A stretch of 43,610 nucleotides of DNA from Ktedonobacteraceae bacterium (GTDB lineage: Bacteria > Chloroflexota > Ktedonobacteria > Ktedonobacterales > Ktedonobacteraceae). Every line of letters begins with the position of its first letter. Position 1 is the first letter of the stretch. Both the position numbers and the translations under genes were made by a program. The notes under the pieces are model-generated. The model worked only from the letters and a program-made list of their open reading frames with translations. It did not search any database and was not told the DNA's origin. The stretch is taken from contig JBGQJX010000001.1 in assembly GCA_041499255.1 (NCBI GenBank), forward strand, positions 1 through 43,610, given 5' to 3'. This document shows, piece after piece, positions 14 to 43,442 of this stretch.

Positions 14-607
14 ATGCCGGTCAGCTACACCAATCGCAAAGGACTGACGTACACGCTGTACCGGGGACAGACCAGGACCGGCAAGCCACGCTATTACTTT
101 GGTCGCGCCGGCCAGGGTCAAGGTGAACCGGTCACGGAGCTCCCACCCGGCTTCACGATCAGCGAGAGCGTCAACGGTGTGGTCTCCCTGGTCAAAGACC
201 GCCCCTCACTGATCCAGCCAGAGGAGGTGGCGGCCATAGAGACGGCGGTGCAGCAGCACCCCGAGGCGCGCCAGTACCGGGTCGCCGTCAAGCACGACCG
301 GATCGAGATCTACGAGCAAGTCGGCCCCGATTACGACGCTCTGCTCGGCGAGCTGCATATGGTCGGCCTGTCGAGGCCGGGCATCGCCGAGCGGTTGCAG
401 GCCTTTCAGGAGCAGCACGCCCGCTACACGCCGGTGTTGCGCTTCATTCTCCTCGATCCGGCGCGGCGACAGTTCGGCGCGGAGCGGATGTGCTACCGGG
501 GGAGTGTCGACGGTTGGTTGGAACTGGCACAAACGGGATCCGTGGCGAAGTTGGCGCGTGAACTCATTCCCACCCTGGGCACGGACCAGTTCTATGAACT
601 CTGGTGA
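14..607 (+). CDS. hypothetical protein, no recognisable domain
   Basis: 197-codon ORF preceded by caggagggccagg (AGGAGG-like RBS). Clearly more GC-rich than most of the window. No motif I can name. Confidence 0.5.
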   Translation: MPVSYTNRKGLTYTLYRGQTRTGKPRYYFGRAGQGQGEPVTELPPGFTISESVNGVVSLVKDRPSLIQPEEVAAIETAVQQHPEARQYRVAVKHDRIEIYEQVGPDYDALLGELHMVGLSRPGIAERLQAFQEQHARYTPVLRFILLDPARRQFGAERMCYRGSVDGWLELAQTGSVAKLARELIPTLGTDQFYELW

Positions 608-5452: not shown

Positions 5453-5528
5453 TGGTAGCGGGAACAGGATTCGAACCTGCGACCTCCGGGTTATGAGCCC
5501 GACGAGCTAACCACTGCTCTATCCCGCG
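5453..5528 (-). tRNA. tRNA-Met, initiator type (anticodon CAU)
   Basis: Hand-folded cloverleaf: CGCGGGA acceptor with a C1xU72 mismatch, anticodon loop CTCATAA closed by three G:C pairs, TTCGAAT T-loop, encoded CCA. Confidence 0.85.
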
Positions 5529-5559
5529 TCATTGGTAAGCGCCTGGTGCGAGGGAAAAC

Positions 5560-5635
5560 TGGTAGCGGGGGGAGGACTCGAACCTCCGACCTTTGGGTTA
5601 TGAGCCCAACGAGCTAACCACTGCTCCACCCCGCG
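5560..5635 (-). tRNA. tRNA-Met, initiator type (anticodon CAU), second copy
   Basis: CGCGGGG acceptor with a C1xU72 mismatch, GGGCTCATAACCC anticodon arm, TTCGAGT T-loop, encoded CCA. Confidence 0.85.
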
Positions 5636-18076: not shown

Positions 18077-18409
18077 TTATTGAGGTGGAGTAAGTTCCAT
18101 TGCTACTTTGATAGGCCCCTCTCCTTCTCTGGTTTGACGTAGCGTAATATCGGCTGTCAACTTGAGCGCGGAGAGAAGTTCTATTAAAGTGTTCAGCGTG
18201 GGATTGATTTTGTCCGAAGAGAGCAGGCGGGATACTGCTTCTCGTTTCTTTCCCATACGGGTTGCCAGCTCTTCCTGGCTCATATTTTTATATTTGCGCA
18301 CCATATCGATGGCATGCATCAGCTCTAACTCGGCGTCCATCTCTCGATAGCCAGCAGCAAATTCATCGTTCTTTAGTCGCTTTTGAAGACGCTGCTCAAA
18401 TCTATTCAT
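18077..18409 (-). CDS. XRE-family HTH protein (antitoxin-like), apparently orphan
   Basis: HTH segment MSQEELATRMGKKREAVSRLLSSDKINPTLNTLIELLSAL. Overlapping palindromes (TTGTAACAT..ATGTTGCAA, TGTAAC..GTTACA) at 18469-18497 in its promoter region. Confidence 0.7.
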   Translation of the reverse strand: MNRFEQRLQKRLKNDEFAAGYREMDAELELMHAIDMVRKYKNMSQEELATRMGKKREAVSRLLSSDKINPTLNTLIELLSALKLTADITLRQTREGEGPIKVAMELTPPQ

Positions 18410-18595: not shown

Positions 18596-18749
18596 GCTCT
18601 CGGACCCGTTTGGTGATGTGGATTGTGCAGGCAGGTGAGAAGACCTCTGGCTCTTACATCACCCTCTAGAGCATTTGCCATGGCCAGAGTCACTCTTTCT
18701 CGTTCCGGGCTGACCCAGTTCTATTGCTTCACACCAAACGGGTCCGAGA
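18596..18749. repeat. 18-bp perfect inverted repeat enclosing 118 nt (long hairpin, MITE-like or structured RNA)
   Basis: tctcggacccgtttggtg (18596-18613) pairs with caccaaacgggtccgaga (18732-18749). The interior has further pairing (ctctggc/gccagag). On the minus strand it follows the merB-like stop and is followed by a T-rich tract. Confidence 0.35.
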
Positions 18750-18777
18750 ATCAAGATATATGTCAATGGGCACTGGT

Positions 18778-19530
18778 TTATTCACTGAATCCGAACAGTG
18801 ACGATTGAGCTATCCTGGTGGCGTATGCGCTTTGCGCCAATGTCAGGTATATCCCATCTACCTGTTGCCGATTCATGCGGTAGGCTCTCGCGTGTTCTTC
18901 TGACCAGAAGAAGACGGAGTTGCTTCAGTAGTCGCCAATGATGTTCGGGCCCTCGAAATGCTGCCAGTCTACTTCTGGCTCGAATAGGAGAGGCTGCGCA
19001 TCTTTCTCTTTGACGCTGCACTCCATGTCGCTATTGACAGTGAGATGTAATTCTCGACCACAATGCGCACACGCAGTCTCTATCTCGATGGAAAGTCGCT
19101 CGTTACGTAAGCGCCCTTGCACGAAGGGCGTAGCCATAGCATCTTCCGCTCACGCTCCAAAAATGCGCTCTCCGGTGCTGAAGAGCAGGCGATGAGGTGT
19201 CTTCTCCGCGGTGACTGGAAACGCCCAACTGACCTCTCCGGCAGGGTTTTGAACCAGGAAAAACAGGTTCTGCTGGAGATCGTTGAGAATGGCGATGACC
19301 CTGGAAAGTGGAAGTTGTAATTGTTGCGCGATATCTTGAGCACGTAAGGGCATACCGTGGTTGCGTGGGAGTTCGGAGACGACGAAATTTCGCACAAGGT
19401 GATGATCACGCGTCATGAAGCTGAGCCTGGTTGAGGGTTGATGTTGCGCATGCGCGAGGTGCTTGTGCCAGTTCTCAGCGGGCACTGCGAGAATTCTCTT
19501 TTGCCGACCGATCAGGATGGTATCTTTCAT
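18778..19530 (-). CDS. alkylmercury lyase (MerB)-family protein with two in-frame TGA codons: candidate selenoprotein, alternatively a pseudogene
   Basis: ORFs 19150-19530 and 18925-19137, plus an unlisted 48-codon segment (18778-18924), are all in one frame and separated only by TGA at 19150-19152 and 18925-18927. The contexts FGA-U-AEDAMATPF and GDY-U-SNSVFFWS align with MerB YAW-C96-ALD99TLIFP and SFC-C159-HVHFFAS. GGAGGAG RBS before the ATG at 19530. Confidence 0.55.
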
Positions 19531-19859
19531 CTGTCTCCTCCATGCGGGATGTTCTTTCCGCGTTCATCGTTGTTCGCGGTGGATTCGGTTAAATGATGGC
19601 TGGCGCTCACTCCATATTCCATATCGTAGACTTGCTTGAGCTGGCCTATACGCTGGAGCGTTTCCTCACTGAAAGGAAGTTTGTTTTCAAATGCGTGCAA
19701 CGTCATTCCTTCTAGCAGATCGCCGAGGGACATATCAAGGTATTCCGCGAGCGCTTTGAGCACTTTGACCATGCTTTTTTCCATGCGGACGCCGATCTGT
19801 ACGCGTTCAACAGGAATTTTACGCTGCTGCGCATGAGATGATTCTTCGCTTTTGTCCAT
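19527..19859 (-). CDS. hypothetical protein, possible ribbon-helix-helix regulator
   Basis: The segment VQIGVRMEKSMVKVLKALAEYLDMSLGDLLEGM looks like a beta-alpha-alpha RHH. Its stop overlaps the merB-like start (ATGA). The ATG at 19859 has a GAGAGGA RBS; the track start at 19886 is a TTG. Confidence 0.45.
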   Translation of the reverse strand: MDKSEESSHAQQRKIPVERVQIGVRMEKSMVKVLKALAEYLDMSLGDLLEGMTLHAFENKLPFSEETLQRIGQLKQVYDMEYGVSASHHLTESTANNDERGKNIPHGGDR

Positions 19860-20071
19860 GTTATCCTCTCTGGTGTGCCAATGCAAGAATATTCAGATAG
19901 CGATATTATATTGATAACTTTGTAACTATATAACATTATAACACATTGGAAACAAAAACAACAGATGGCAACCCTCATACTTCTTTAAACATCCTCTTTC
20001 AATGTGTTATAAAAGAATAGAGAGATATACGAATAGGTGTAAGGAGTTTCATTTTTCCAAGGAGAAAAGCT

Positions 20072-22657: not shown

Positions 22658-23068
22658 ATGGCGGAAATATATCAATTGACTTTGGCCGATGTACTTGCTC
22701 TTCACGAAATCATGATGGAGCGGTTCGGTCGTGCCCCTGCTCCATTACGTGAGGAAGGTTTGTTGGAATCGGCGATCATGCGACCACGTATGGTCGCTTA
22801 TTATAATGATATCGACCTGGTCAGCCAGTGCGCAATACTGACAGTGGGCATCTCACAGGCCCAGGCCTTTCTGGATGGAAATAAACGAACAGCATATGCT
22901 GCCTGTGATGTGTTTCTGCGATTAAATGGACTGGCCTTTTCAGGCGACCCATTAGCTCTGGCCATTCAATTAGAGACTGTGGCACAGCAATCAAGCAACC
23001 TTGAAGAAGCAACTGAGCGCTTTGCACAGTGGCTGCGAGGAGAGGTGAGCGCGAGAGATGAAAGCTAA
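22658..23068 (+). CDS. doc: death-on-curing (Doc/Fic) family toxin with variant active-site motif
   Basis: Fic/Doc motif region QAFLDGNKRTA, against canonical HxFxD(G/A)NKRTA. N-terminus LTLADVLALHEIMMERFG is typical of Doc. Confidence 0.85.
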   Translation: MAEIYQLTLADVLALHEIMMERFGRAPAPLREEGLLESAIMRPRMVAYYNDIDLVSQCAILTVGISQAQAFLDGNKRTAYAACDVFLRLNGLAFSGDPLALAIQLETVAQQSSNLEEATERFAQWLRGEVSARDES

Positions 23069-33827: not shown

Positions 33828-34046
33828 CTTTCGTAAGTTATTGTCTTTAATCTCATGAAGCCAGGCGACCACGTGGTATGATTGAACAGGAAAACCCCCT
33901 AAGGATGATATACGCTGCTGCACCGGTACCGCCCCTTCAACTGGGTGCGAGAGGATTTTGCGAACGATGGATGTAGGACGTTGGAGGAGGTGGCGAGGGT
34001 TATTTATGCGGTTTGATTGTGTTGAGCGAAGAATTACGAGTTGTAG

Positions 34047-34119
34047 CGTCGGTGGCGGGACTCGAACCCACGGCCTATTCTTTAGGAGAGAATTGCTCTA
34101 TCCACTGAGCTACACCGAC
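34047..34119 (-). tRNA. tRNA-Arg (anticodon CCU)
   Basis: Hand fold: GTCGGTG acceptor, GCTC/GAGC D-stem, ATTCT-CTCCTAA-AGAAT anticodon arm, GTGGG-TTCGAGT-CCCGC T-arm. No encoded CCA. Confidence 0.85.
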
Positions 34120-34244
34120 GTGCTGTTCTCACATCGCTAGTATAGCACGAGTGAACTGGTGTGACAAGTTTCGGTTTTCGTTTCGAGGAAAAAGGTTCGA
34201 GTCCTCTCAGCCCTACTAACCTTCCACGTAAAACCACTTCAAAC

Positions 34245-34317
34245 GGCCCTGTAGCACATCGGTATAGTGCAATCGCCTTATAAGCGATAGAACGCAGTTC
34301 AACTCTGCGCGGGGCTA
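34245..34317 (+). tRNA. tRNA with anticodon UAU (tRNA-Ile2-like)
   Basis: Hand fold: GGCCCTG/CGGGGCT acceptor (two G-U pairs), GCAC/GTGC D-stem with GG in the loop, ATCGC-CTTATAA-GCGAT anticodon arm, CGCAG-TTCAACT-CTGCG T-arm, 73 nt. Confidence 0.6.
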
Positions 34318-34680: not shown

Positions 34681-35652
34681 ATGCCAGGAGAAGATCCACG
34701 GTCTGATGTGCCAGAGATGGCGACCCTACTCGAATTCAGGAAGAAGCACAACCAACGCACCGTCCTCTTCTTAGGTGCCAGGGCAGGAGGGCTCTTCCGC
34801 AGCGCGCAGTTTTACGAAACAATACGTCAATTCAGTAAGCGAGACTTTGCGGAACTCACTCAATTCGAGCAATTTAGCGAATGCTACAATGTGTTGCAAG
34901 AAGAACGGTTTAGTGAGCGCGATCGCTTCAGCATTTTATCAGGTTCCCTGCGAGAAATCGCCACAATCGATGCGGACGTGTGCCTGGCAGAGCTCGTTAA
35001 GGAAGGAGTATTCGACGTGGTGATCTCAACCAACATTGATGATCTTGCGGAGCAGGCGTTCACTCAAGTTGGGATGCGCGATTTAGAGCACTTCCAGGTC
35101 ATAGTCCCCAGACGTGGCACCGACCTTGGCATCATTCACTCTCAAAAGAAAGATTCTAGCTGGCTAATCAAAACTTTTGGAGATTTACCTTCCCGTTCTT
35201 ATAAAATTGTTAAGCGCCATACTCATCTGGTAGATGAAGAGTATCCCGAGTTGAAAAAGTTCCTGGAAGAAATCTTGTCGGAAGATATTCTCGTGATCGG
35301 ATTGGATCCCTTCTGGGATGCAGGGATATTGTCGGCTTTCCCCACTCGCGGGGGATCCTACTGGTTTGTGAACGAGCAAGAAGAGACGATTGATCCTTTG
35401 CTGACACGTACCTGGCAAGGAAGACATATCAAATATATTACAGGAAGTGCCGGCAGTTACGAGAACTTCTTGAGGGCGTTATACTGGCATCTCAGCAAGG
35501 GAAGAGTGCCGGGAAGCTACCAGTTAATACGCGATATAAACATTCAACTTCAAACGATACGCCACGAGCTGAACCAACTTCAAAAAATACGTGACGACAT
35601 TTCGCGTCTACGAAAAGATATCCTGCCGTCAAACCTCACTGAGGGGAAGTGA
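34681..35652 (+). CDS. SIR2_2-like (DHS-like NAD-binding fold) protein with C-terminal coiled coil
   Basis: The order of motifs VLFLGARAGG ... VVISTNIDDLAEQAF ... LIKTFGDL ... ILVIGLDPFWDAGIL mirrors SIR2_2 (lfLGAG, TTNYD.l.E, KlHG, flGYS..D). The sirtuin-type His position is Phe. The C-terminal 45 aa have a heptad-like pattern. Confidence 0.7.
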   Translation: MPGEDPRSDVPEMATLLEFRKKHNQRTVLFLGARAGGLFRSAQFYETIRQFSKRDFAELTQFEQFSECYNVLQEERFSERDRFSILSGSLREIATIDADVCLAELVKEGVFDVVISTNIDDLAEQAFTQVGMRDLEHFQVIVPRRGTDLGIIHSQKKDSSWLIKTFGDLPSRSYKIVKRHTHLVDEEYPELKKFLEEILSEDILVIGLDPFWDAGILSAFPTRGGSYWFVNEQEETIDPLLTRTWQGRHIKYITGSAGSYENFLRALYWHLSKGRVPGSYQLIRDINIQLQTIRHELNQLQKIRDDISRLRKDILPSNLTEGK

Positions 35653-35685
35653 TTCGATAAATTTATTGCAGTGGAGAGAGCTATT

Positions 35686-37263
35686 ATGGAGAGCTTTGTC
35701 AATCGGGAGACGGAACTACAGATTATCGATAAGGCATTTGATGCCCTCATTGATAAAAAGAGTCTTTTACGTACCCCTATTGTGGATTTTTATGGCGTTG
35801 AAGGCATAGGCAAGACCGCCATTCTGAAGAAAATAGAACAGAAATGCAACGATCTCAATATACCTAACATCTGGGCCAACGCCAGCCTGGATATCCCCCA
35901 GCTTTCGCGCGAGATCACTCAGCAGTTGCAAACAAAATATCGCGTGGAGCTGCAAAATGATGAAGAGGATTGGTCTCACCGACCCCTCAGTGCCACCAGA
36001 GCTTTGCTCGAACGTGGGCCAGTTGTGATGCTATTGGATTCTGTAGACACTACCGACGTCGAGCAGGTCAGGTGGCTTGAAACGATGCTGCGTGACCTGA
36101 TTGAAGATAATACGCTTTTCGTGGTACTCACAAGTAAGAGAATGTTAGCATTTGAGCGCGAGCGGTCCGTAGCTCGTAAGCTTACCTTTGTTCCTGTCAA
36201 ACCATTCGATCGCAGCAATAGCGAACTCTATTTGAATAGCATTAGTGATCGCATCGATCCAGAGTTGCGCAAGGTGATTTTCGAATGGACGCGCGGCTAC
36301 CCCCTGGCGATTGATGTCATGGTGCAAGCTATTCTTAACGAGAGACTTGATCCGAGAAGGCCGCAAGATCGGCAGCATTTGTTAAACATTATTATGGGGC
36401 AGGTGATTGATCGGGGTATCCTCGCAAACGTGGAACCTGTCGAACTCGGCTGGTACCAATCCGCATTAACACTCCTTTCTGTCCCCAGGCGTTTCAACCT
36501 GGTGATCATGCAGGATATGATCGAAAATTTTGCTCCAGAACTGAGGCTGGAAAGCAGCCTGGCATACATGGGCTTGCCAAAGAGAATTAATGCAGCAACC
36601 GATGTACTCAGTTGGAACATGCCTCGCGCGGGCTTCTCCGTTGATGCGCCTATTCGCCACATTTTTTTGCTGAAGCAGCGCATACAACAACCCGAGACGT
36701 ATGCAACTATCAATCGTTTCCTGGCAGAGATCAATAAGCGTTTCGCGAAAGAAGTACCCGGTTCTGATCGTGTGCGCTATTTGCGAGAGTACCTCTATCA
36801 TAGCGCCAGTGCTGGCGATGACCAGGCGCTCCCCTCTATCGTGGAACGGACGGTGCGGGAGATCATTGCCGGACCTCCCGAATCGTTCTTACAATTTTTT
36901 GAGGAGTTCTCGCGGGACGAAGAACTCAAAGAAGTGTTGGGTAGTTCTGTCAACATCGCCTTGTCGCTTATCCATAGACACCTGGCTGAGACTAGCAGGC
37001 AGTCCGCCAAAGAATCATCTGGAGCGGACCATTTACGTGCGCTGCAGGATATTTTTTACCACCTCATGAACGATCCAGAAAACATTGGCCTGCCATCAAT
37101 TCTGATACATTACCTGGAGGAAGTCATACAAAATGAGCTTCCAGAGACCTCTTTCAAACTCTTTGAAGAGCTTTCGCGCGATGAAAGATTCAAAAAAGCG
37201 TTGGGGCAAGATTTCGATAGGTTCTCTCTCATCATCCATAATAATTTATCCACAGAAAGATAA
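35686..37263 (+). CDS. STAND-class P-loop NTPase (NB-ARC/AAA_16-like) with two C-terminal ~67-aa repeats
   Basis: FVNRETEL lead-in, Walker A GVEGIGKTA, Walker B VVMLLDSVD, GxP motif TRGYPLAI. The ATG at 35686 has a GGAGAGAG RBS; an alternative GTG is at 35671. Confidence 0.8.
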   Translation: MESFVNRETELQIIDKAFDALIDKKSLLRTPIVDFYGVEGIGKTAILKKIEQKCNDLNIPNIWANASLDIPQLSREITQQLQTKYRVELQNDEEDWSHRPLSATRALLERGPVVMLLDSVDTTDVEQVRWLETMLRDLIEDNTLFVVLTSKRMLAFERERSVARKLTFVPVKPFDRSNSELYLNSISDRIDPELRKVIFEWTRGYPLAIDVMVQAILNERLDPRRPQDRQHLLNIIMGQVIDRGILANVEPVELGWYQSALTLLSVPRRFNLVIMQDMIENFAPELRLESSLAYMGLPKRINAATDVLSWNMPRAGFSVDAPIRHIFLLKQRIQQPETYATINRFLAEINKRFAKEVPGSDRVRYLREYLYHSASAGDDQALPSIVERTVREIIAGPPESFLQFFEEFSRDEELKEVLGSSVNIALSLIHRHLAETSRQSAKESSGADHLRALQDIFYHLMNDPENIGLPSILIHYLEEVIQNELPETSFKLFEELSRDERFKKALGQDFDRFSLIIHNNLSTER

Positions 37264-37269
37264 ACACCT

Positions 37270-39951
37270 ATGCCGACACAAGTACAAGATGTCCCAGATA
37301 ACTTTATCGGGCGTATAACAGAAATAGATATTTTTACCAACTGGTTGTCGGACCCCAACGCCCCGTGGATCCTGTATTTACATGATGAGTCCAAAGAAAG
37401 GGCAAAAAAGGGAGGAGTCGGCAAAACCTGGTTACTCAGAAAGTTTGCTACACTGGCGAAGCAGCAACCGAAGAACTTCGCAATTGTGATGGTTGACTTC
37501 TTTAACGTGGCTGACCGGGACGGCGTTATCGTGGCTGAACGTGTTGTCCAGGGATTACAAGAAATCTACCCGCAGTGGTCAGCCCGCTCGTTCAGGGCGT
37601 CGCTTGAGGAGTATGGCGATGCCATCAATGCAGGCAATATTGATGTAGCGGATATCCGGGAACAATTGTCGCTTGCCTTGATTGCCGACCTGGAGCAGTT
37701 GCATGAGCAACTGCTTGAAACCGATAGCCATCTGCTGGTGTTTTTCGACACGTTTGAACTGATCGAGCAGAATCCGGTCAGTGCTGTCCTGCGCGTCTCA
37801 CATACATTTCCAGACAACTATCGTTTCCCACGCATTAGGGCAGTTATAGCAGGGCGCAACGCTCTTGATTGGGATCACCCAAACTGGCGAGGACGAAAGC
37901 AAGAGGTTCAGCGTGTTGCCATCGAGCCGTTCAACCAGCAAGAGCTGGCACAATATATCAATGCACAATCCATCGAAACATTGGATGCCTCATCAGAGCA
38001 GGCTGCGGCATTATATGAACGAACCGAGGGCCGTCCCATCCTGGTTGGATTGGTGACGGATGTCGTAAACCGCCGGATTACGACTATCGATAACCTTATC
38101 ACTATTCCCAAAGCTGATTTCGAGTCCCATCTTATTTCCAAAGTGAATGACCTGGACGACCCAATCAATTGGAGTATCCTGTTCATGGCCCATGCCTATC
38201 ACCGCTTTAATTTAAATCTCTTGAATTCTATATTGAGCTACTCGTCTCTGGTAAAATCGGCACAGGAGATAAAACACCAGGAGTGGTCAGAGGAGTTGCC
38301 AACGCTCTCATTTGTGCGGCAGGCTGGTTCTGGCGACGATTTTGTCCTCCACGATGAAATGCGCAACCTGGTAACGCGGAACTGGTGGGATGTGCAGGAT
38401 ATCGACCGGCGCTACCGCTGCGATGTCAGTCGCGGCACTGTCAGCTATTACGAGCAGGAAATTGCCAGTGTGCAGAACGAACAGTTGCGCCAGGTGTACG
38501 TAGTCGAGATGTTATATCACAAGTTGTTCCTGGACGTGGAAGATGGGTTGAAATTCTTTGATCGACATTTTAACCGGGCCATCAACCTGTGGCTGACGGC
38601 ATATGCGCGATCGCTGCTGCAAGAGACGCATCATTATTTGCGTTATATGTCTCAAGCACAACTCTACAATCTGACGCTGTCCGAGGCGAAACTTTTGCGC
38701 AAGGAAGAAAAGCCGAAAGAGGCGTTTGCCCTCTATCAGCAACTAGAGCAGGAAGCAAAGCCGCATTGGTTAGAAATCCATCGTGCCGACCTCCTCCACG
38801 AGAAGGGCCATTGTTATCTTCAGATGAGCAATTTCGCCGGTGCGATTGATTGTTTCACACAAAGCCTGGAAATTGAAGCGACGCGTGGTGATGAGACGCG
38901 TCGTGCTGAAGTTCTCTACTTACTGGGCTATATCTATCGTCGCGAGGGACAATTAGACAAGGCGGCACAATATTACGAAGATAGTATTGCCATCCACAAA
39001 AAATTAGGCAACTTGCGCTCCTATGCTAACGTGCTCAATAGCATTGCTTACCTGTACAGGCTGCAAGGAAAAATGGAGGAAGCCCTGCGCAATTGCAAGA
39101 TTGCTTTAAGCATTCGCCAGGATTTGTTCCAGCAGGGTAAAACGAGCGAGGTCTCTGTCGGCTTAAGTCTCAGCACTATGGGTGTCATCTACCTGAATAC
39201 AGATGATCTTGTAAGCGCCGAAAACGCATTTCGCGAAGCCCTCGAGATTTTCGCCCGCGCGGGTCATAAAAAAGGCATCGCATCAATGTATATCCGTTTC
39301 GGACAGGTAGAGATGAATCGAGGCAATTTGAGCCAGGCCATACAATGGTTTGAAAAGGGCTATTATGCTTCGCGGGCGATTGATATGGAAGCACAGATTA
39401 ACAGCCTGAACAAGCAGGGCTGGGTCCATGTGCTGCAAAGCGTTCTGGAAGAATCCACGGAGGCGCGGCAAAGCAAGTTGATAGAGTCGATACCATTCTT
39501 CGAGCAGGCGATAGAACTGGCCAGGGAGGTGTTTGACTACTACCAGGAAGCAGAATCGTTAATCGACCTTGCCGACGTGCTCGAACGCCTTAACCGCCAT
39601 GGGCCATCACAGCAATCGTTGAAAGAGGCTGAAGACATCGCGAAACGCTATAACTACAACCTGTTGCTGGGCATCGCAGAAGAGTTCCAGGGTGATCTTC
39701 GATACCATGCAGGCGACTATAGCCGCGCATTTGAGCATTTTGCAGCCTCTTGCCGGTACATGGCTCTTTACAATCCTATCCGGTACAACAAGGCCTTGCG
39801 TAAACTGCTTGATACACTGCTTAAAACGCCCAGGAGTGAACTCCCTGCTATCACAACCGCGCTTGTTGAGTACTGGTCAGAGCAAGGATTGGCAGAGAAA
39901 TTCCCTGAGTTGATAAAGACATGCGAGGAGGTTAGTGGCCTTATGGTCTAG
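37270..39951 (+). CDS. NB-ARC-like STAND NTPase fused to TPR repeats
   Basis: FIGRITEI lead-in, Walker A KGGVGKTWL, Walker B LLVFFDTFE, GxP-like TEGRPILVGL. The C-terminal ~400 aa carry TPR_12-like repeats (e.g. LLGYIYRREGQLDKAAQYYEDSIAIHKKLGN). Confidence 0.85.
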   Translation: MPTQVQDVPDNFIGRITEIDIFTNWLSDPNAPWILYLHDESKERAKKGGVGKTWLLRKFATLAKQQPKNFAIVMVDFFNVADRDGVIVAERVVQGLQEIYPQWSARSFRASLEEYGDAINAGNIDVADIREQLSLALIADLEQLHEQLLETDSHLLVFFDTFELIEQNPVSAVLRVSHTFPDNYRFPRIRAVIAGRNALDWDHPNWRGRKQEVQRVAIEPFNQQELAQYINAQSIETLDASSEQAAALYERTEGRPILVGLVTDVVNRRITTIDNLITIPKADFESHLISKVNDLDDPINWSILFMAHAYHRFNLNLLNSILSYSSLVKSAQEIKHQEWSEELPTLSFVRQAGSGDDFVLHDEMRNLVTRNWWDVQDIDRRYRCDVSRGTVSYYEQEIASVQNEQLRQVYVVEMLYHKLFLDVEDGLKFFDRHFNRAINLWLTAYARSLLQETHHYLRYMSQAQLYNLTLSEAKLLRKEEKPKEAFALYQQLEQEAKPHWLEIHRADLLHEKGHCYLQMSNFAGAIDCFTQSLEIEATRGDETRRAEVLYLLGYIYRREGQLDKAAQYYEDSIAIHKKLGNLRSYANVLNSIAYLYRLQGKMEEALRNCKIALSIRQDLFQQGKTSEVSVGLSLSTMGVIYLNTDDLVSAENAFREALEIFARAGHKKGIASMYIRFGQVEMNRGNLSQAIQWFEKGYYASRAIDMEAQINSLNKQGWVHVLQSVLEESTEARQSKLIESIPFFEQAIELAREVFDYYQEAESLIDLADVLERLNRHGPSQQSLKEAEDIAKRYNYNLLLGIAEEFQGDLRYHAGDYSRAFEHFAASCRYMALYNPIRYNKALRKLLDTLLKTPRSELPAITTALVEYWSEQGLAEKFPELIKTCEEVSGLMV

Positions 39952-40002
39952 TAAACATCTACGCCATCTTATAAGTGCCTACAATGAGCGTACAACACAG
40001 AT

Positions 40003-40041
40003 CTCTAGAAGTGAAACGCAGCCTGTACCTCACTTCTAGAG
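40003..40041 (+). promoter_or_regulatory. 12-bp perfect hairpin in the 207-nt gap before the rSAM gene
   Basis: ctctagaagtga / tcacttctagag with a 15-nt loop and no U-tract. Possible attenuator or processing site. Confidence 0.3.
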
Positions 40042-40081
40042 GCTGAGGAACGATTTATCATATGGTGGTACCAGGCTTAAT

Positions 40082-40165
40082 ATGCAGTTCTTCGTACCTG
40101 AGAAAATGTCGTGCGGTGAAAGTATTGTGTTCAAAGTAGAGCAGCGTTTATTGGCAGGATGTTAA
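40082..40165 (+). CDS. 27-codon ORF, speculative RiPP-type precursor peptide
   Basis: MQFFVPEKMSCGESIVFKVEQRLLAGC. Its stop lies 2 nt before the ATG at 40168 of the rSAM/SPASM gene and overlaps the alternative start at 40159. RBS is weak and there is no homology evidence. Confidence 0.2.
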   Translation: MQFFVPEKMSCGESIVFKVEQRLLAGC

Positions 40166-41700
40166 TAATGGATATCTGGCTTGACTCGACCCCAACCCAT
40201 TGGTTCACTCGCTCTGAATGTGATGAATGTAGTGAATGTTTTAATAACAATAACAGTCCCTCATCCTCACTCAAGTTCTCTCCGACTGCGGTAGACTTTC
40301 AGCACATTCGCACCGGCTATTTACAGCAAGCAACGCTACTCCATATGCAAGAATGCTCAGCCGGGCGCTGGCTTGTCTGCAACCCCACTGGATCAGGGCA
40401 GCTTGCTGTTGTAGACCAGCAAACCCTTTTTCTTCTTGAACAGTTTCGCACTCCTACCTCTCTCTCTGACGTACAGCATGTGCTAACGACGTACCCGCCA
40501 GAGGATATTGAAAAGGCTGTTGCATTATTCTACAATATGGGCTTTCTGCGCGAACTGGGCGAGCGCAATCCAATCAATAAAGAGCCGCAGTTTCACACGC
40601 TCTCAGCCTGGTTACATGTTACCAATGCCTGCAATTTGCGCTGCGATTATTGTTATTTACACAAGACTTCCGAGCATATGACCAGCGATACAGCACAACG
40701 CGCAGTCGATGCCGTCTTCAGGTCAGCCACAAAGCAAGGATTCAAGCAAGTACTGCTCAAATATTCTGGAGGAGAGGCCAGTTTACATATGGCCAATGTT
40801 GTGGCGATCCATGACTACGCCGCCCAATTGGCACAAAAGCACGCCATCACCTTGCACGCTTCTATCTTCAGCAACGGCGTCTCCCTGTCACAGCGTGCTA
40901 TCGCTCACCTCAAAGAGCGTAATATCGGCATAATGATCTCTTTAGATGGTATTGGGGCGTACCATGATTGCCAGCGCCCATTCATCAATGGACAAGGTTC
41001 TTTTAAATATGTGGATCGCACGATCAACTCACTACTAATGCATGATTTCGCCCCGCATATATCCGTGACTGTCTCCCAGCGTAATCTGCCAGGTTTGCCT
41101 GACCTCCTCACCTATATTTTGGATCGCGAGTTGACATTTTCTCTTAATTATTATCGGGAAAATGATTGTTCGGCGCACATAACCGATCTGCAATTTACGG
41201 ATCAGCAGACGATTGCGGCCATGCGCTCGGCCTTCGCTATTATCGAACGCCAGCTTCCCAGGTGGTCATTGCTTGGGTCTCTTATTGACAAGGCCAGTTT
41301 GCTAACACCACATCACCACACGTGTGGGGTGGGTCAGAGTTACCTTGTGATCGATCAGTATGGCGGCGTCGCCAAGTGCCACGCCGATATCAAGCGCACA
41401 GTCACCACCATCGATGCGGATGATCCATTACAGGTCATTAAGGATGATACTGCTGGCGTACAAGGACTATCTGTAGATGAAAAAGAGGGCTGTCGCACCT
41501 GCGATTGGCGCTACTGGTGTACCGGAGGATGTCCACTGCTAACCTACCGGATCACGGGAAGAAGTGATGTCAAATCTCCCAATTGCAATATTTATAAAGC
41601 ACTCTTCCCTGAAGCGCTCCGTCTTGAAGCCATGCGCTTGTTAAAATACACTCCACCCGTTGCTCTTATGAAGGTAAGATCGACGGGTGTTCAAGTTTAA
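40159..41700 (+). CDS. radical SAM/SPASM-domain enzyme with N-terminal RRE/PqqD-like extension
   Basis: Radical SAM cluster CNLRCDYC, SPASM CRTCDWRYWCTGGC (Cx2Cx5Cx3C), plus HHTCGVGQ and PNCNIYK. The ~130-aa N-terminal extension contains LAVVDQQTLFLLEQFRTPTSLSDV...AVALFYNMGFL. An alternative start is at 40168. Confidence 0.85.
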   Translation: MLIMDIWLDSTPTHWFTRSECDECSECFNNNNSPSSSLKFSPTAVDFQHIRTGYLQQATLLHMQECSAGRWLVCNPTGSGQLAVVDQQTLFLLEQFRTPTSLSDVQHVLTTYPPEDIEKAVALFYNMGFLRELGERNPINKEPQFHTLSAWLHVTNACNLRCDYCYLHKTSEHMTSDTAQRAVDAVFRSATKQGFKQVLLKYSGGEASLHMANVVAIHDYAAQLAQKHAITLHASIFSNGVSLSQRAIAHLKERNIGIMISLDGIGAYHDCQRPFINGQGSFKYVDRTINSLLMHDFAPHISVTVSQRNLPGLPDLLTYILDRELTFSLNYYRENDCSAHITDLQFTDQQTIAAMRSAFAIIERQLPRWSLLGSLIDKASLLTPHHHTCGVGQSYLVIDQYGGVAKCHADIKRTVTTIDADDPLQVIKDDTAGVQGLSVDEKEGCRTCDWRYWCTGGCPLLTYRITGRSDVKSPNCNIYKALFPEALRLEAMRLLKYTPPVALMKVRSTGVQV

Positions 41701-41726
41701 GAAATGTATTGAGGGGTCATATATAG

Positions 41727-43442
41727 ATGGCAAGAGAAGCTTCACGTTCTGATGTGCCAGAGATGGCGACCCTACTCGAATTCAGGAAGAAGCACAACCA
41801 ACGCACCGTCCTCTTCCTGGGCGCCAGGGCAGGGGGCCTCTTCCGCAGCCAGCAGTTTTACGATACATTACGGCGGTTCAGTAAGCAGAATTTTGCTGAA
41901 CTGTCTCGATTCGAGCAGTTTGGCGAGTGCTACCAGGTACTGCAAGAAGAACGACTCAGTGAGCGCGATCGCTTCAGCATTTTATCAAGTTCCCTACGAG
42001 GTGTTGGCACCATTGAAGCGGATGTTTGCCTGGCAAAGCTCGTCAAGGATGGCGACTTCGACGTGGTGATCTCTACCAACATAGATGACCTGGCGGAGCA
42101 GGCGTTTACTCAAGTGGGGATGCGTGAATTAGAAGGCTTTCAGGTACTTATTCCCAGGCGTGGTACCGACCTGAGCATTATTCACTCCCAGAAGAACGTT
42201 GCTTGCTGGCTTGTCAAGACCTTCGGAGATTTACCCTCCCACTCCTATAATATCGTCAAACGTCATACTCACCTGGTGGATGATGAGTATCCCCAGTTGA
42301 GAAAGTTCCTGGAAGATACTCTGGCAGGAGATATTCTCGTCATAGGGCTGGACCCTGTCTGGGATGCAGGGATACTGGCGGCTTTTCCCAACAGGGGAGG
42401 GTCCTACTGGTTTGTGAACGAGCAAGAACTGGCAGATCATCCTCTCGTGGTACATACCTGGTGGGGAAGAAATGTCAAATACATTGCTGGCGCCGAAGGT
42501 AGCTATGAGAGTTTCTTGAGAGCGTTATATGGGCATCTCTCCAAGGAGAGTGTGCCAGTAAGTCACGAGGTTATGCACGATAACGATCAAGGGCAAACAA
42601 CACGCCACAATCAGCCCGTCTCACAGCAAGGTGAACCAGGGAAAGACATAACTGGTTTATCCGCCCATAAAGGCTCTATTGCTGACGTGCTGTTGGTTAC
42701 AGTCACGGAAGTTGAGGCAAGAGCGGTACTTGACCAGTTTCCCGAGGCCAGATTGCGCTTCATCGGTGATCGAGTCTATTATGACCTGGGAGTGATCGGC
42801 GGAGCAAAAACCTTTATGGTGCAATCCTGGATGGGGGCCGGTGGGTCTGGCGGCGCTCTCCTTACTGTCGCGGAAGGCATACAAGCTGTCTTGCCAACCG
42901 CCGTGGTCATGGTTGGCATCGCTTTTGGCTTTCACCCAAAGAAGCTGCGTATAGGCGACATTCTGATCTCACAACAGCTCCTGGGGTATGACCTGCAGCG
43001 AGTTGGGACTGGTTCTGATGACAAACTGCTTATCCATCCACGAGGAGACCGAGTCTCAGCTTCGGTCCGCCTGTTAGACAGGTTTAAAGCTGGCAAGCTT
43101 ACCAGTAATCTCCAGGATTGGCCAAAGTCACCCAGGATAGAATTTGGCCTTGTTCTCTCCGGGTCAAAGCTGGTTGACAATCAAGACTTTCGTGACCAGC
43201 TACATGCTATCTCTCCGGAAGCCATCGGTGGGGAGATGGAGGGCGCAGGCCTGTACGATGCGGCACAGCGCTATAAAGTTGACTGGATCCTGGTCAAGGC
43301 GATCTGTGACTGGGCAGACGGCAAAAAGCATATGAAGAAGGAAGAACGCCAGAGACTGGCCGCCGAGAATGCCGCCCGTTTCACCATCCAGGTCATTCAA
43401 CAGGGTGGATTCGCTGACCAGCGGCGGCAGGAGAAGTCATAG
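41727..43442 (+). CDS. SIR2_2-like module fused to PNP_UDP_1 (nucleoside phosphorylase/nucleosidase) domain
   Basis: The N-terminal ~280 aa are paralogous to 34681-35652 (same motifs, LVKTFGDL). The C-terminal ~250 aa contain VMVGIAFG and IGGEMEGAGLY, typical of PNP_UDP_1. Confidence 0.8.
   Translation: MAREASRSDVPEMATLLEFRKKHNQRTVLFLGARAGGLFRSQQFYDTLRRFSKQNFAELSRFEQFGECYQVLQEERLSERDRFSILSSSLRGVGTIEADVCLAKLVKDGDFDVVISTNIDDLAEQAFTQVGMRELEGFQVLIPRRGTDLSIIHSQKNVACWLVKTFGDLPSHSYNIVKRHTHLVDDEYPQLRKFLEDTLAGDILVIGLDPVWDAGILAAFPNRGGSYWFVNEQELADHPLVVHTWWGRNVKYIAGAEGSYESFLRALYGHLSKESVPVSHEVMHDNDQGQTTRHNQPVSQQGEPGKDITGLSAHKGSIADVLLVTVTEVEARAVLDQFPEARLRFIGDRVYYDLGVIGGAKTFMVQSWMGAGGSGGALLTVAEGIQAVLPTAVVMVGIAFGFHPKKLRIGDILISQQLLGYDLQRVGTGSDDKLLIHPRGDRVSASVRLLDRFKAGKLTSNLQDWPKSPRIEFGLVLSGSKLVDNQDFRDQLHAISPEAIGGEMEGAGLYDAAQRYKVDWILVKAICDWADGKKHMKKEERQRLAAENAARFTIQVIQQGGFADQRRQEKS

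Follow-up and report, generated by a model that had tools for sequence, protein, structure and literature searches.

Two in-frame UGA codons at the catalytic cysteine positions of a MerB-fold gene family point to a probable double selenocysteine protein

The DNA described here is a 43,610-nucleotide stretch from an uncultured Ktedonobacteraceae bacterium (GenBank assembly GCA_041499255.1, contig JBGQJX010000001.1, positions 1 to 43,610 of the forward strand; GC content 50.8%), which we refer to in full as the window. On its minus strand, at positions 19530–18778, it carries one intact gene for a protein related to the alkylmercury lyase MerB, in which two in-frame TGA codons occupy the positions of both metal-binding catalytic cysteines. 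We conclude with good confidence that this is an intact MerB-fold gene in which both metal-ligand cysteines are replaced by selenocysteine (Sec) through local recoding of UGA. The evidence comes from the conservation of both TGAs in relatives from several phyla, from a hairpin closely following each of them, and from the alignment of the two sites with the MerB active site.

The reading frame extends from the ATG at 19530 to a TAA at 18778–18780 and comprises 251 codons, among which the only in-frame stops are the two TGAs (Table 1); we refer to these as site 1 and site 2. The peptides spanning them are GA-U-AEDAMATPFVQGR at site 1 and NIIGDY-U-SNSVFFWSEEHAR at site 2. A preliminary description, made from the letters of this DNA alone, had recognized three consecutive same-frame minus-strand segments separated by the two TGAs and ending at the TAA; re-reading the sequence gives the same arrangement, and all of the peptide motifs that it listed are present in the joined translation.

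Relatives of the gene are widespread. A scan using one genome per species identified them in at least 432 genomes, mostly metagenome-assembled genomes (MAGs) of Chloroflexota and Acidobacteriota, and the best 80 were examined; these include Chloroflexota (with many Anaerolineae), Acidobacteriota, Actinomycetota, Desulfobacterota, Myxococcota, KSB1 and others, and the closest among the 80 are from Ktedonobacteraceae, at 65–68% identity. We aligned orthologues from 83 loci in at least six phyla, retrieved with the peptide probes FFWSEEHA and DAxAxPFVxG; those with conserved TGAs are 49–68% identical to the window protein. The two sites are TGA/TGA in 79 of these loci and TGC/TGA in the other four, and never TAA or TAG, although the 79/83 figure and the invariance of the motifs at the protein level are partly a matter of ascertainment, because both probes overlap the hairpins described below. 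The true terminators of the same genes are a mixture of TAG, TAA and TGA. Cysteine is encoded at site 1 in the four TGC loci (L006 and L018–L020) and is present there in proteins P0007, P0008, P0020, P0036 and others, and it is found at site 2 in the homologues P0012 (TGC) and P0104; no Cys/Cys member of the double-UGA clade was seen among the homologues examined. The preliminary description had argued that two chance nonsense mutations were unlikely to strike exactly these codons, and had looked to other genomes for TGA at the same positions and for cysteine-bearing homologues at each of them; all three expectations are borne out.

A search made without the probes gives a similar picture. When a profile hidden Markov model was run against 1.84 billion protein cluster representatives, 947 proteins matched, and 431 of these matches have E ≤ 1e-10. 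Among the 150 best cluster representatives, at least 76 end exactly one residue before site 1. This result is free of the probe bias; the synonymous-site analysis below is free of it too, because the probes were degenerate back-translations. Most public copies of the gene are represented as 'hypothetical protein' fragments of about 125 residues, and others carry Trp at both sites from use of the wrong genetic code. The latter include the 'full-length' proteins from the Joint Genome Institute (JGI), in which the two Trp residues stem from translation of TGA with code 4.

The interrupted frame behaves as a coding sequence throughout. The first segment, of 126 residues, is encoded identically in four independent assemblies (one from NCBI, one JGI metagenome and two from Logan), and both TGAs are present in each of these contigs that is long enough to reach them; the NCBI contig has three silent differences from the window and still keeps both TGAs. 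Across the 83 loci, amino acid identity is 0.53 in the segment ahead of the first TGA, 0.54 in the middle segment and 0.63 in the last, and in all three of them substitutions are most frequent at codon position 3, followed by 1 and then 2. Segment lengths are fixed, with 74 codons between the TGAs in 79 of the 83 loci and 48 codons in the last segment in 82, and the orthologues are free of frameshifts and, apart from two loci described below, of additional in-frame stops. The preliminary description had named assembly error and decayed copies in close relatives as outcomes that would undo its reading, and neither is what we observe. No conserved restart ATG follows either UGA, and no ATG at all lies within 24 codons in 73 and 71 of the 83 loci, respectively. 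TGA is used as an ordinary stop elsewhere in the window, as had been pointed out earlier, terminating 6 of the 25 long open reading frames (ORFs), and the 15 genes called on a sister contig have no internal TGA and encode Trp as TGG; any recoding is therefore local to this gene. Two individual loci depart from the common pattern of stops: L067 has a third in-frame TGA at codon 188, between the two conserved ones, and L012 has an in-frame TAG at codon 34, near its 5' end, so that its real start is probably further downstream.

Each UGA is followed, within the coding sequence, by a hairpin resembling a bacterial selenocysteine insertion sequence (bSECIS), and both hairpins are located where the preliminary description had placed them (Table 1). 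Hairpin 1, in which the loop lies 26 nt from the UGA, has a predicted folding energy of -10.9 kcal/mol and overlaps codons Thr134–Arg140. Hairpin 2 has a core 7-bp stem of UUCUUCU paired with AGAAGAA together with a lower-stem extension, a UGA-to-loop distance of 19 nt and a folding energy of -8.9 kcal/mol, and it overlaps codons Val206–His213, which encode the FFWSEEH motif. Published descriptions of bSECIS elements specify a loop of 3–9 nt with a G within the two initial positions, a stem of 4–16 bp, a location 16–37 nt from the UGA, and a free energy of -7.5 kcal/mol or lower (PMC13188914). Both hairpins agree with this model in every respect, and together with the strong synonymous-site constraint this supports the earlier suggestion that they are SECIS elements. 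A scan of 18600–19700 against Rfam gave only sub-threshold snoRNA and miRNA noise, and no family for either hairpin.

Single-sequence shuffling z-scores do not discriminate in this setting, the genuine SECIS of Escherichia coli fdhF itself having z = -0.08, and we therefore preferred comparative evidence. Nucleotide frequencies 3' of the TGAs show that third-codon positions are near-invariant inside both hairpins and freely variable just outside them. Relative synonymous-codon entropy is 0.27 for codons 134–140 in hairpin 1 and 0.12 for codons 207–212 in hairpin 2, compared with a mean of 0.88 over 125 informative columns elsewhere (Mann-Whitney p = 9e-9). Hardly any nucleotide varies in the run TTC-TTC-TGG-TCA-GAA-GAA of hairpin 2: TTC encodes both Phe residues in 83/83 loci and TCA encodes Ser in 81/83, and GAA is used for the two Glu residues in 82/83 and 73/81, respectively. 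The loops are similarly conserved, with GGUC in hairpin 2 in 82 of the 83 loci and CGUGC in hairpin 1 in 72. In hairpin 1 we also observe a compensatory change from C-G to U-A, in which a Pro-to-Ser replacement is paired with a silent GGG-to-GGA change in six loci from three phyla, and one swap from G-C to C-G; this hairpin is more stable than synonymously recoded versions of itself (mean z = -1.7, with control regions at about 0). A full 6-bp stem 1 is present in 70 of the 79 loci with TGA at site 1 and in none of the four with Cys (Fisher p = 4e-4), but the Cys loci are mutually related.

Two homologues show what has become of the hairpins in genes that lack the TGAs. P0012 (L091 261–1013), with a Ser codon (TCC) at site 1 and a Cys codon (TGC) at site 2, is the only full-length, standard-code, close family member that we found without TGA; its hairpin 1 is partly decayed (CCC to GCT), and from its hairpin 2 one Glu codon is gone (GAA to GCA). 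In P0048 (L092 2030–2782) the two Sec positions are GGT (Gly) and TTA (Leu), and both SECIS-like hairpins are intact in nucleotides, which may mean that function was lost recently or that there is a problem with the sequencing.

The relationship to MerB proposed in the preliminary description is supported by profile, alignment and structural comparisons. When U is replaced by C, the joined translation scores 47.8 bits with the Pfam MerB family PF03243, well above the gathering score of 27. Matches to NCBIfam models are all sub-threshold, including that to SaoL (NF040728, 42.4 bits with a cutoff of 140), so the protein is a member of the MerB superfamily distinct from both SaoL and canonical MerB; NCBIfam release 20 contains no model for a double-UGA MerB-like family. 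A profile built from 18 family members and compared with PDB sequences matches MerB2 (5C17, E = 3e-5) and MerB (3F2G and 1S6L, E about 1e-3), and in this alignment site 1 corresponds to Cys96, the Asp at +3 to Asp99, Cys154 to Cys117, and site 2 to Cys159. Site 2 aligns with the first Cys of the MerB 'CC' pair (Cys159), and the chain of the C160S mutant shows 'CS' there. The alignment thus agrees with the earlier assignment of both stops to catalytic cysteines, with the Asp at +3 conserved. The triad of Cys96, Asp99 and Cys159 has been used as a strictly conserved criterion for MerB (PMC8261052); in the window protein all three positions can be aligned and the Asp is retained, but UGA stands in place of both Cys codons, and the triad in its strict form is absent.

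We modeled the natural full-length homologue P0012, which is 49% identical to the window protein, with AlphaFold2 (predicted local distance difference test, 92.8; predicted template modeling score, 0.89). In a Foldseek comparison of this model with the PDB, the 11 best matches are all MerB or MerB2, with E about 1e-10, target-normalized template modeling scores of 0.6–0.8 (maximum 0.80) and 195–229 aligned columns. From the P0012 model and the sequence matches we conclude that the window protein has the MerB fold and is homologous to MerB. A tblastn search of a plasmid collection returned only canonical MerB/MerBA, at 24–28% identity over 62–77% of the protein, and no member of the double-UGA family.

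By analogy with E. coli fdhF, each UGA would be recoded locally, with the hairpin in the coding sequence 19–26 nt downstream binding SelB charged with Sec-tRNA(Sec), so that the ribosome would insert Sec instead of terminating. Two UGAs require two SECIS elements, and both are present. On the strength of these sequence features we have high confidence that Sec is inserted at both UGAs by SelB and Sec-tRNA(Sec). If the protein acts as MerB does, Sec127 and Sec202 would serve, through their selenolates, as the two ligands to the metal of an organometallic substrate, with Asp130 supplying the proton to the leaving carbon. Selenium-based mimics of MerB are known to cleave Hg-C bonds faster than their sulfur analogues (PMC11639659; PMC10114901). 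Arguing from the MerB precedent, the substrate is most likely an organometallic compound, with organomercurials such as methylmercury foremost, and the chance that MerB-type protonolysis of a carbon-metal bond, as an organomercurial lyase, is the physiological activity is about even or slightly less. A broader interpretation, in which these genes constitute a widespread and unannotated family of diselenol organometallic lyases, mainly in Chloroflexota and Acidobacteriota of soil, peat and sediment, the first of MerB type with Sec at both ligands, and may provide demethylation of methylmercury with high affinity and independently of the mer operon, is in its entirety rather doubtful.

The nearest precedent is SaoL, the 'selenocysteine-assisted organometallic lyase' (NF040728), which has a single Sec and is encoded in the nine-gene SAO locus saoTECXLBPAD of about 50 strictly anaerobic species (Haft & Gwadz 2022, bioRxiv 10.1101/2022.07.06.499078). 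The preliminary description knew of no MerB-like protein among established selenoprotein families; in this it was incomplete, since SaoL has been described since 2022, and SaoL, with its one Sec, is the sole MerB-like entry in the prokaryotic selenoprotein catalogues of 2022 and 2026. Like SaoL, the present family belongs to the MerB superfamily (PF03243), has an in-frame UGA at the Cys159 position, keeps the equivalent of Asp99, is represented in databases by copies truncated at a UGA, and has an organometallic substrate only by inference. The two differ in that SaoL has a Cys-Sec dipeptide, whereas Sec202 is preceded by Tyr or Phe in 83/83 loci, and in that SaoL retains Cys at the Cys96 equivalent, where Sec is predicted here in 79/83. 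The sub-threshold SaoL score, the absence of a conserved neighborhood and the different lineages, in at least 432 species genomes, further distinguish them, and the gene is not part of an SAO locus. We found no description of a double-Sec MerB in the literature searched; subscription journals were outside its coverage and an earlier description is possible.

Compared with MerB (EC 4.99.1.2; 3F0O, 3F0P and 1S6L) and MerB2 (5C17), the fold is shared and Cys96, Asp99, Cys159 and Cys117 align one-to-one, and the likely mechanism, in which two chalcogenolate ligands on the metal are combined with protonolysis by Asp, would be the same. The differences are that both catalytic Cys are replaced by Sec, that identity is only about 15–25%, that there are about 40 extra residues at the N-terminus, and that there is no mer operon. 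The hairpins resemble the fdhF SECIS in lying within the coding sequence just 3' of the UGA and in fitting the bSECIS model. The GGUC apical loop of fdhF, mentioned in the preliminary description and read by us from the K-12 genome, is identical to that of hairpin 2 and is placed almost identically, at +22..25 in fdhF and +23..26 here, counted from the U of UGA. In contrast to fdhF, a single short gene here contains two separate elements, the loop of hairpin 1 is CGUGC with a longer spacing of 26 nt, and neither of the perfect 7-bp stems has the bulged U seen in the fdhF fold. Binding of SelB to the two hairpins is a prediction. The bulged U has a functional role in the fdhF SECIS. More than one UGA-encoded Sec per polypeptide is also known in the SaoP permease (Haft & Gwadz) and in archaeal FrhD/VhuD (PMC13188914), and both Sec residues of SaoP are proposed to contact the same ligand (10.1101/2022.07.06.499078); those proteins are unrelated to this one in fold and function, and here the two residues are 75 apart and would replace both catalytic metal ligands.

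Several observations weigh against the interpretation of the gene as a double-Sec organometallic lyase, in addition to the partial ascertainment of the 79/83 figure. No tRNA-Sec gene was identified by ARAGORN in the 43.6-kb window and 60 loci, no selA, selB or selD was found by tblastn with E. coli SelA, SelB and SelD in the window and the flanks of all loci, and tblastn with E. coli FdhF revealed no second selenoprotein gene in the same sequences, although the negatives for the Sec machinery are uninformative, as they cover only the window and, around the relatives, at most 10 kb on either side of the gene. The folding energy of hairpin 2 is no different from that of its synonymous recodings (z about 0), since G-U pairs still form when UUU is used for Phe or GAG for Glu, and the support for this hairpin is the near-absence of synonymous variation. 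The scores against the MerB equivalog models are far from their cutoffs (39.2 bits with a cutoff of 193 for NF009710; 34.9 with 200 for NF033555). Clustering of neighboring genes revealed no conserved neighborhood, with the commonest neighbor present in only 9 of the 83 loci, and there is no mer operon context, with merA, merR, merT and merP absent nearby. Finally, the mercury-diselenolate product might be bound so tightly as to be too stable for turnover and release.

Some of these observations also fit an alternative in which both Sec residues are real but the protein is not an organomercurial lyase. It could cleave another carbon-metal or carbon-metalloid bond, such as those of tin, lead or arsenic, or a carbon-selenium or carbon-tellurium compound; it could form a redox-active diselenide; or it could be a high-affinity trap or chaperone for a metal or selenium, binding once and without turnover. 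We regard this as a substantial possibility, if short of an even one. The lack of mer genes and of any conserved neighborhood agrees with it, as do the low identity to characterized MerB and the distance from the equivalog cutoffs, and one homologue adjoins a TehB/TPMT-type methyltransferase. Sec at the metal site of SaoL makes other substrates plausible and MerB binds other metals (Haft & Gwadz), and MerB without MerA has been considered physiologically problematic (PMC8261052). However, the whole catalytic geometry of MerB is kept, including the Asp codon (GAY in 82/83) and the Cys117 equivalent, which favors protonolysis over simple redox chemistry or binding, and the acceleration of Hg-C cleavage by the selenium mimics (PMC11639659; PMC10114901) also speaks for a lyase.

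Other alternatives dispense with Sec altogether. The UGAs could be passed by near-cognate read-through with Trp, Cys or Arg, or by termination and reinitiation to give peptides that assemble. RNA structures downstream of a stop codon can generally stimulate read-through, and the machinery for Sec was not found in the window and locus flanks. Nevertheless, the codon is UGA and never UAA or UAG, it is placed exactly where homologues carry Cys, and both hairpins fit the bSECIS model, one of them being a near-copy of the fdhF apex; moreover, a MerB-type site would be destroyed if Trp took the place of both metal ligands. The absence of a conserved start codon after either UGA leads us to reject three separate peptides, and we consider passage of the UGAs without Sec, in any form, very improbable. 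A pseudogene or an artefact of sequencing or assembly, in which a MerB-like gene in decay would carry two nonsense mutations or errors, could account for the way that public gene callers split or truncate the gene, but it is refuted by the recurrence of both TGAs in four independent assemblies, by TGA/TGA in 79 of 83 loci across several phyla without frameshifts, and by the coding pattern and purifying selection in all three segments, and we give it next to no credence. Equally negligible is a genome-wide reassignment that turns UGA into a sense codon (code 4 or 25), for which the reading of TGA as Trp by the JGI pipeline on several short contigs of the family might be cited. Ktedonobacteraceae, Acidobacteriota and the other host lineages follow the standard code, and for the window this explanation is refuted by TGA being an ordinary terminator and by neighboring genes without internal TGA and with TGG for Trp; the GC content of 50.8% is a further point against it. 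Local insertion of Sec at both sites is the interpretation that we prefer.

To our knowledge, Sec very rarely supplies both catalytic chalcogen ligands of an enzyme. With two UGAs and two in-frame SECIS elements in one short gene, found in several phyla, the family offers a natural system in which to study the efficiency of double Sec insertion, the co-evolution of SECIS and peptide (the invariant FFWSEE is hairpin as well as protein), and why Sec should be preferred over Cys. Surveys of merB would miss the family, since automated gene calling ends the protein at residue ~125, ahead of all catalytic residues. One such survey, which required Cys96, Asp99 and Cys159, reported no MerB for Acidobacteria and only seven for Chloroflexi (PMC8261052), and it is in Acidobacteriota and Chloroflexota that the family is common, including MAGs with 'bog', 'fen' or 'SPRUCE' in their record titles. 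The degradation of methylmercury in the environment is a recognized gap in understanding (PMC10114901), and if the family demethylates methylmercury it would bear on this gap and link selenium availability to mercury cycling. The findings are thus relevant to selenoprotein biology and genome annotation, and possibly to mercury cycling.

Table 1. Features of the recoded gene and its surroundings in the window.
Feature	Position	Strand	Remarks
Recoded coding sequence, complete; MerB-fold protein with predicted Sec127 and Sec202	18778..19530	-	250 residues + TAA; read from sequence
In-frame UGA no. 1, codon 127, aligned to MerB Cys96	19150..19152	-	TGA 79/83, TGC 4/83 orthologues
In-frame UGA no. 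2, codon 202, aligned to MerB Cys159	18925..18927	-	TGA 83/83 orthologues
Asp130 codon GAT, aligned to MerB proton donor Asp99	19141..19143	-	GAY 82/83 orthologues
Cys154 codon, aligned to MerB structural Cys117	19069..19071	-	Kept in 82/83 orthologue sequences
True terminator TAA	18778..18780	-	
Shine-Dalgarno-like GGAGGAG	19535..19541	-	4 nt 5' of ATG; read directly from sequence
SECIS-like hairpin 1, CGCCCUU-CGUGC-AAGGGCG	19112..19130	-	7-bp stem; 5-nt loop at 19119-19123
SECIS-like hairpin 2, (GUC)UUCUUCU-GGUC-AGAAGAA(CAC)	18892..18915	-	Core stem 18895-18912; loop GGUC 18902-18905
Small co-oriented upstream ORF	19527..19886	-	110 residues (ATG 19859) or 119 residues (TTG 19886)

The small ORF immediately upstream has a TGA stop that overlaps the start codon of the recoded gene (ATGA), and the two are therefore probably co-transcribed. 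It matches no Pfam family, and since it is conserved in only the nine closest loci it does not belong to the core of the system. Its middle part (VQIGVRMEKSMVKVLKALAEYLDMSLGDLLE) resembles, by eye, a ribbon-helix-helix DNA-binding motif.

A screen of the window and locus flanks for ORFs that continue through one TGA gave 35 candidates, none of them convincing. The best consists of the window ORFs 34681–35652 and 35671–37263 on the plus strand (34681–37263 together), which are in the same frame and separated by the TGA and 18 nt; as the second has its own GTG start, these are most likely merely adjacent genes. A literature search on the use of Sec in Ktedonobacter gave nothing useful.

Among more distant members of the family, P0103, P0108, P0112, P0162 and P0172 form a paralogous clade of full-length proteins of about 250 residues that have neither Cys nor Sec at site 1, lack the Asp, and mostly lack Cys or Sec at site 2; they are probably non-catalytic or function differently. 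P0076 (296 residues), labeled by JGI as an amino-acid N-acetyltransferase, is a family member fused to a GNAT acetyltransferase domain. The neighbors of P0048 include the TehB/TPMT-type methyltransferase and an LCM methyltransferase.

In the window the recoded gene is flanked by genes for an SRAP protein, a radical-SAM DUF512 protein and an HTH_3 protein, the last just downstream at 18077–18409, and by the small ORF. The proteins that share clusters at ≥90% with the ClpP and SRAP proteins of the window bear the names Ktedonobacter sp., Ktedonobacteraceae or Chloroflexota. A Fic-domain protein with a MazE-type antitoxin and an ArsR-type HTH_5 regulator are encoded a few kilobases away (window 22658–23068 region; L001 6405–7046). 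Further along the window, two tRNA-Met genes form a tandem pair at 5453–5635, and a tRNA-Ile gene with the anticodon TAT, which is uncommon in bacteria, adjoins and is divergent from tRNA-Arg(CCT) at 34046–34317. The genes at 35671–43442 on the plus strand form a run typical of an anti-phage defence island, encoding a STAND-type NTPase (NB-ARC/NACHT/AAA_16, 530 residues), a protein with AAA_16 and TPR domains (893 residues), a radical-SAM protein (513 residues), and a protein with SIR2_2 and PNP_UDP_1 phosphorylase domains (571 residues).

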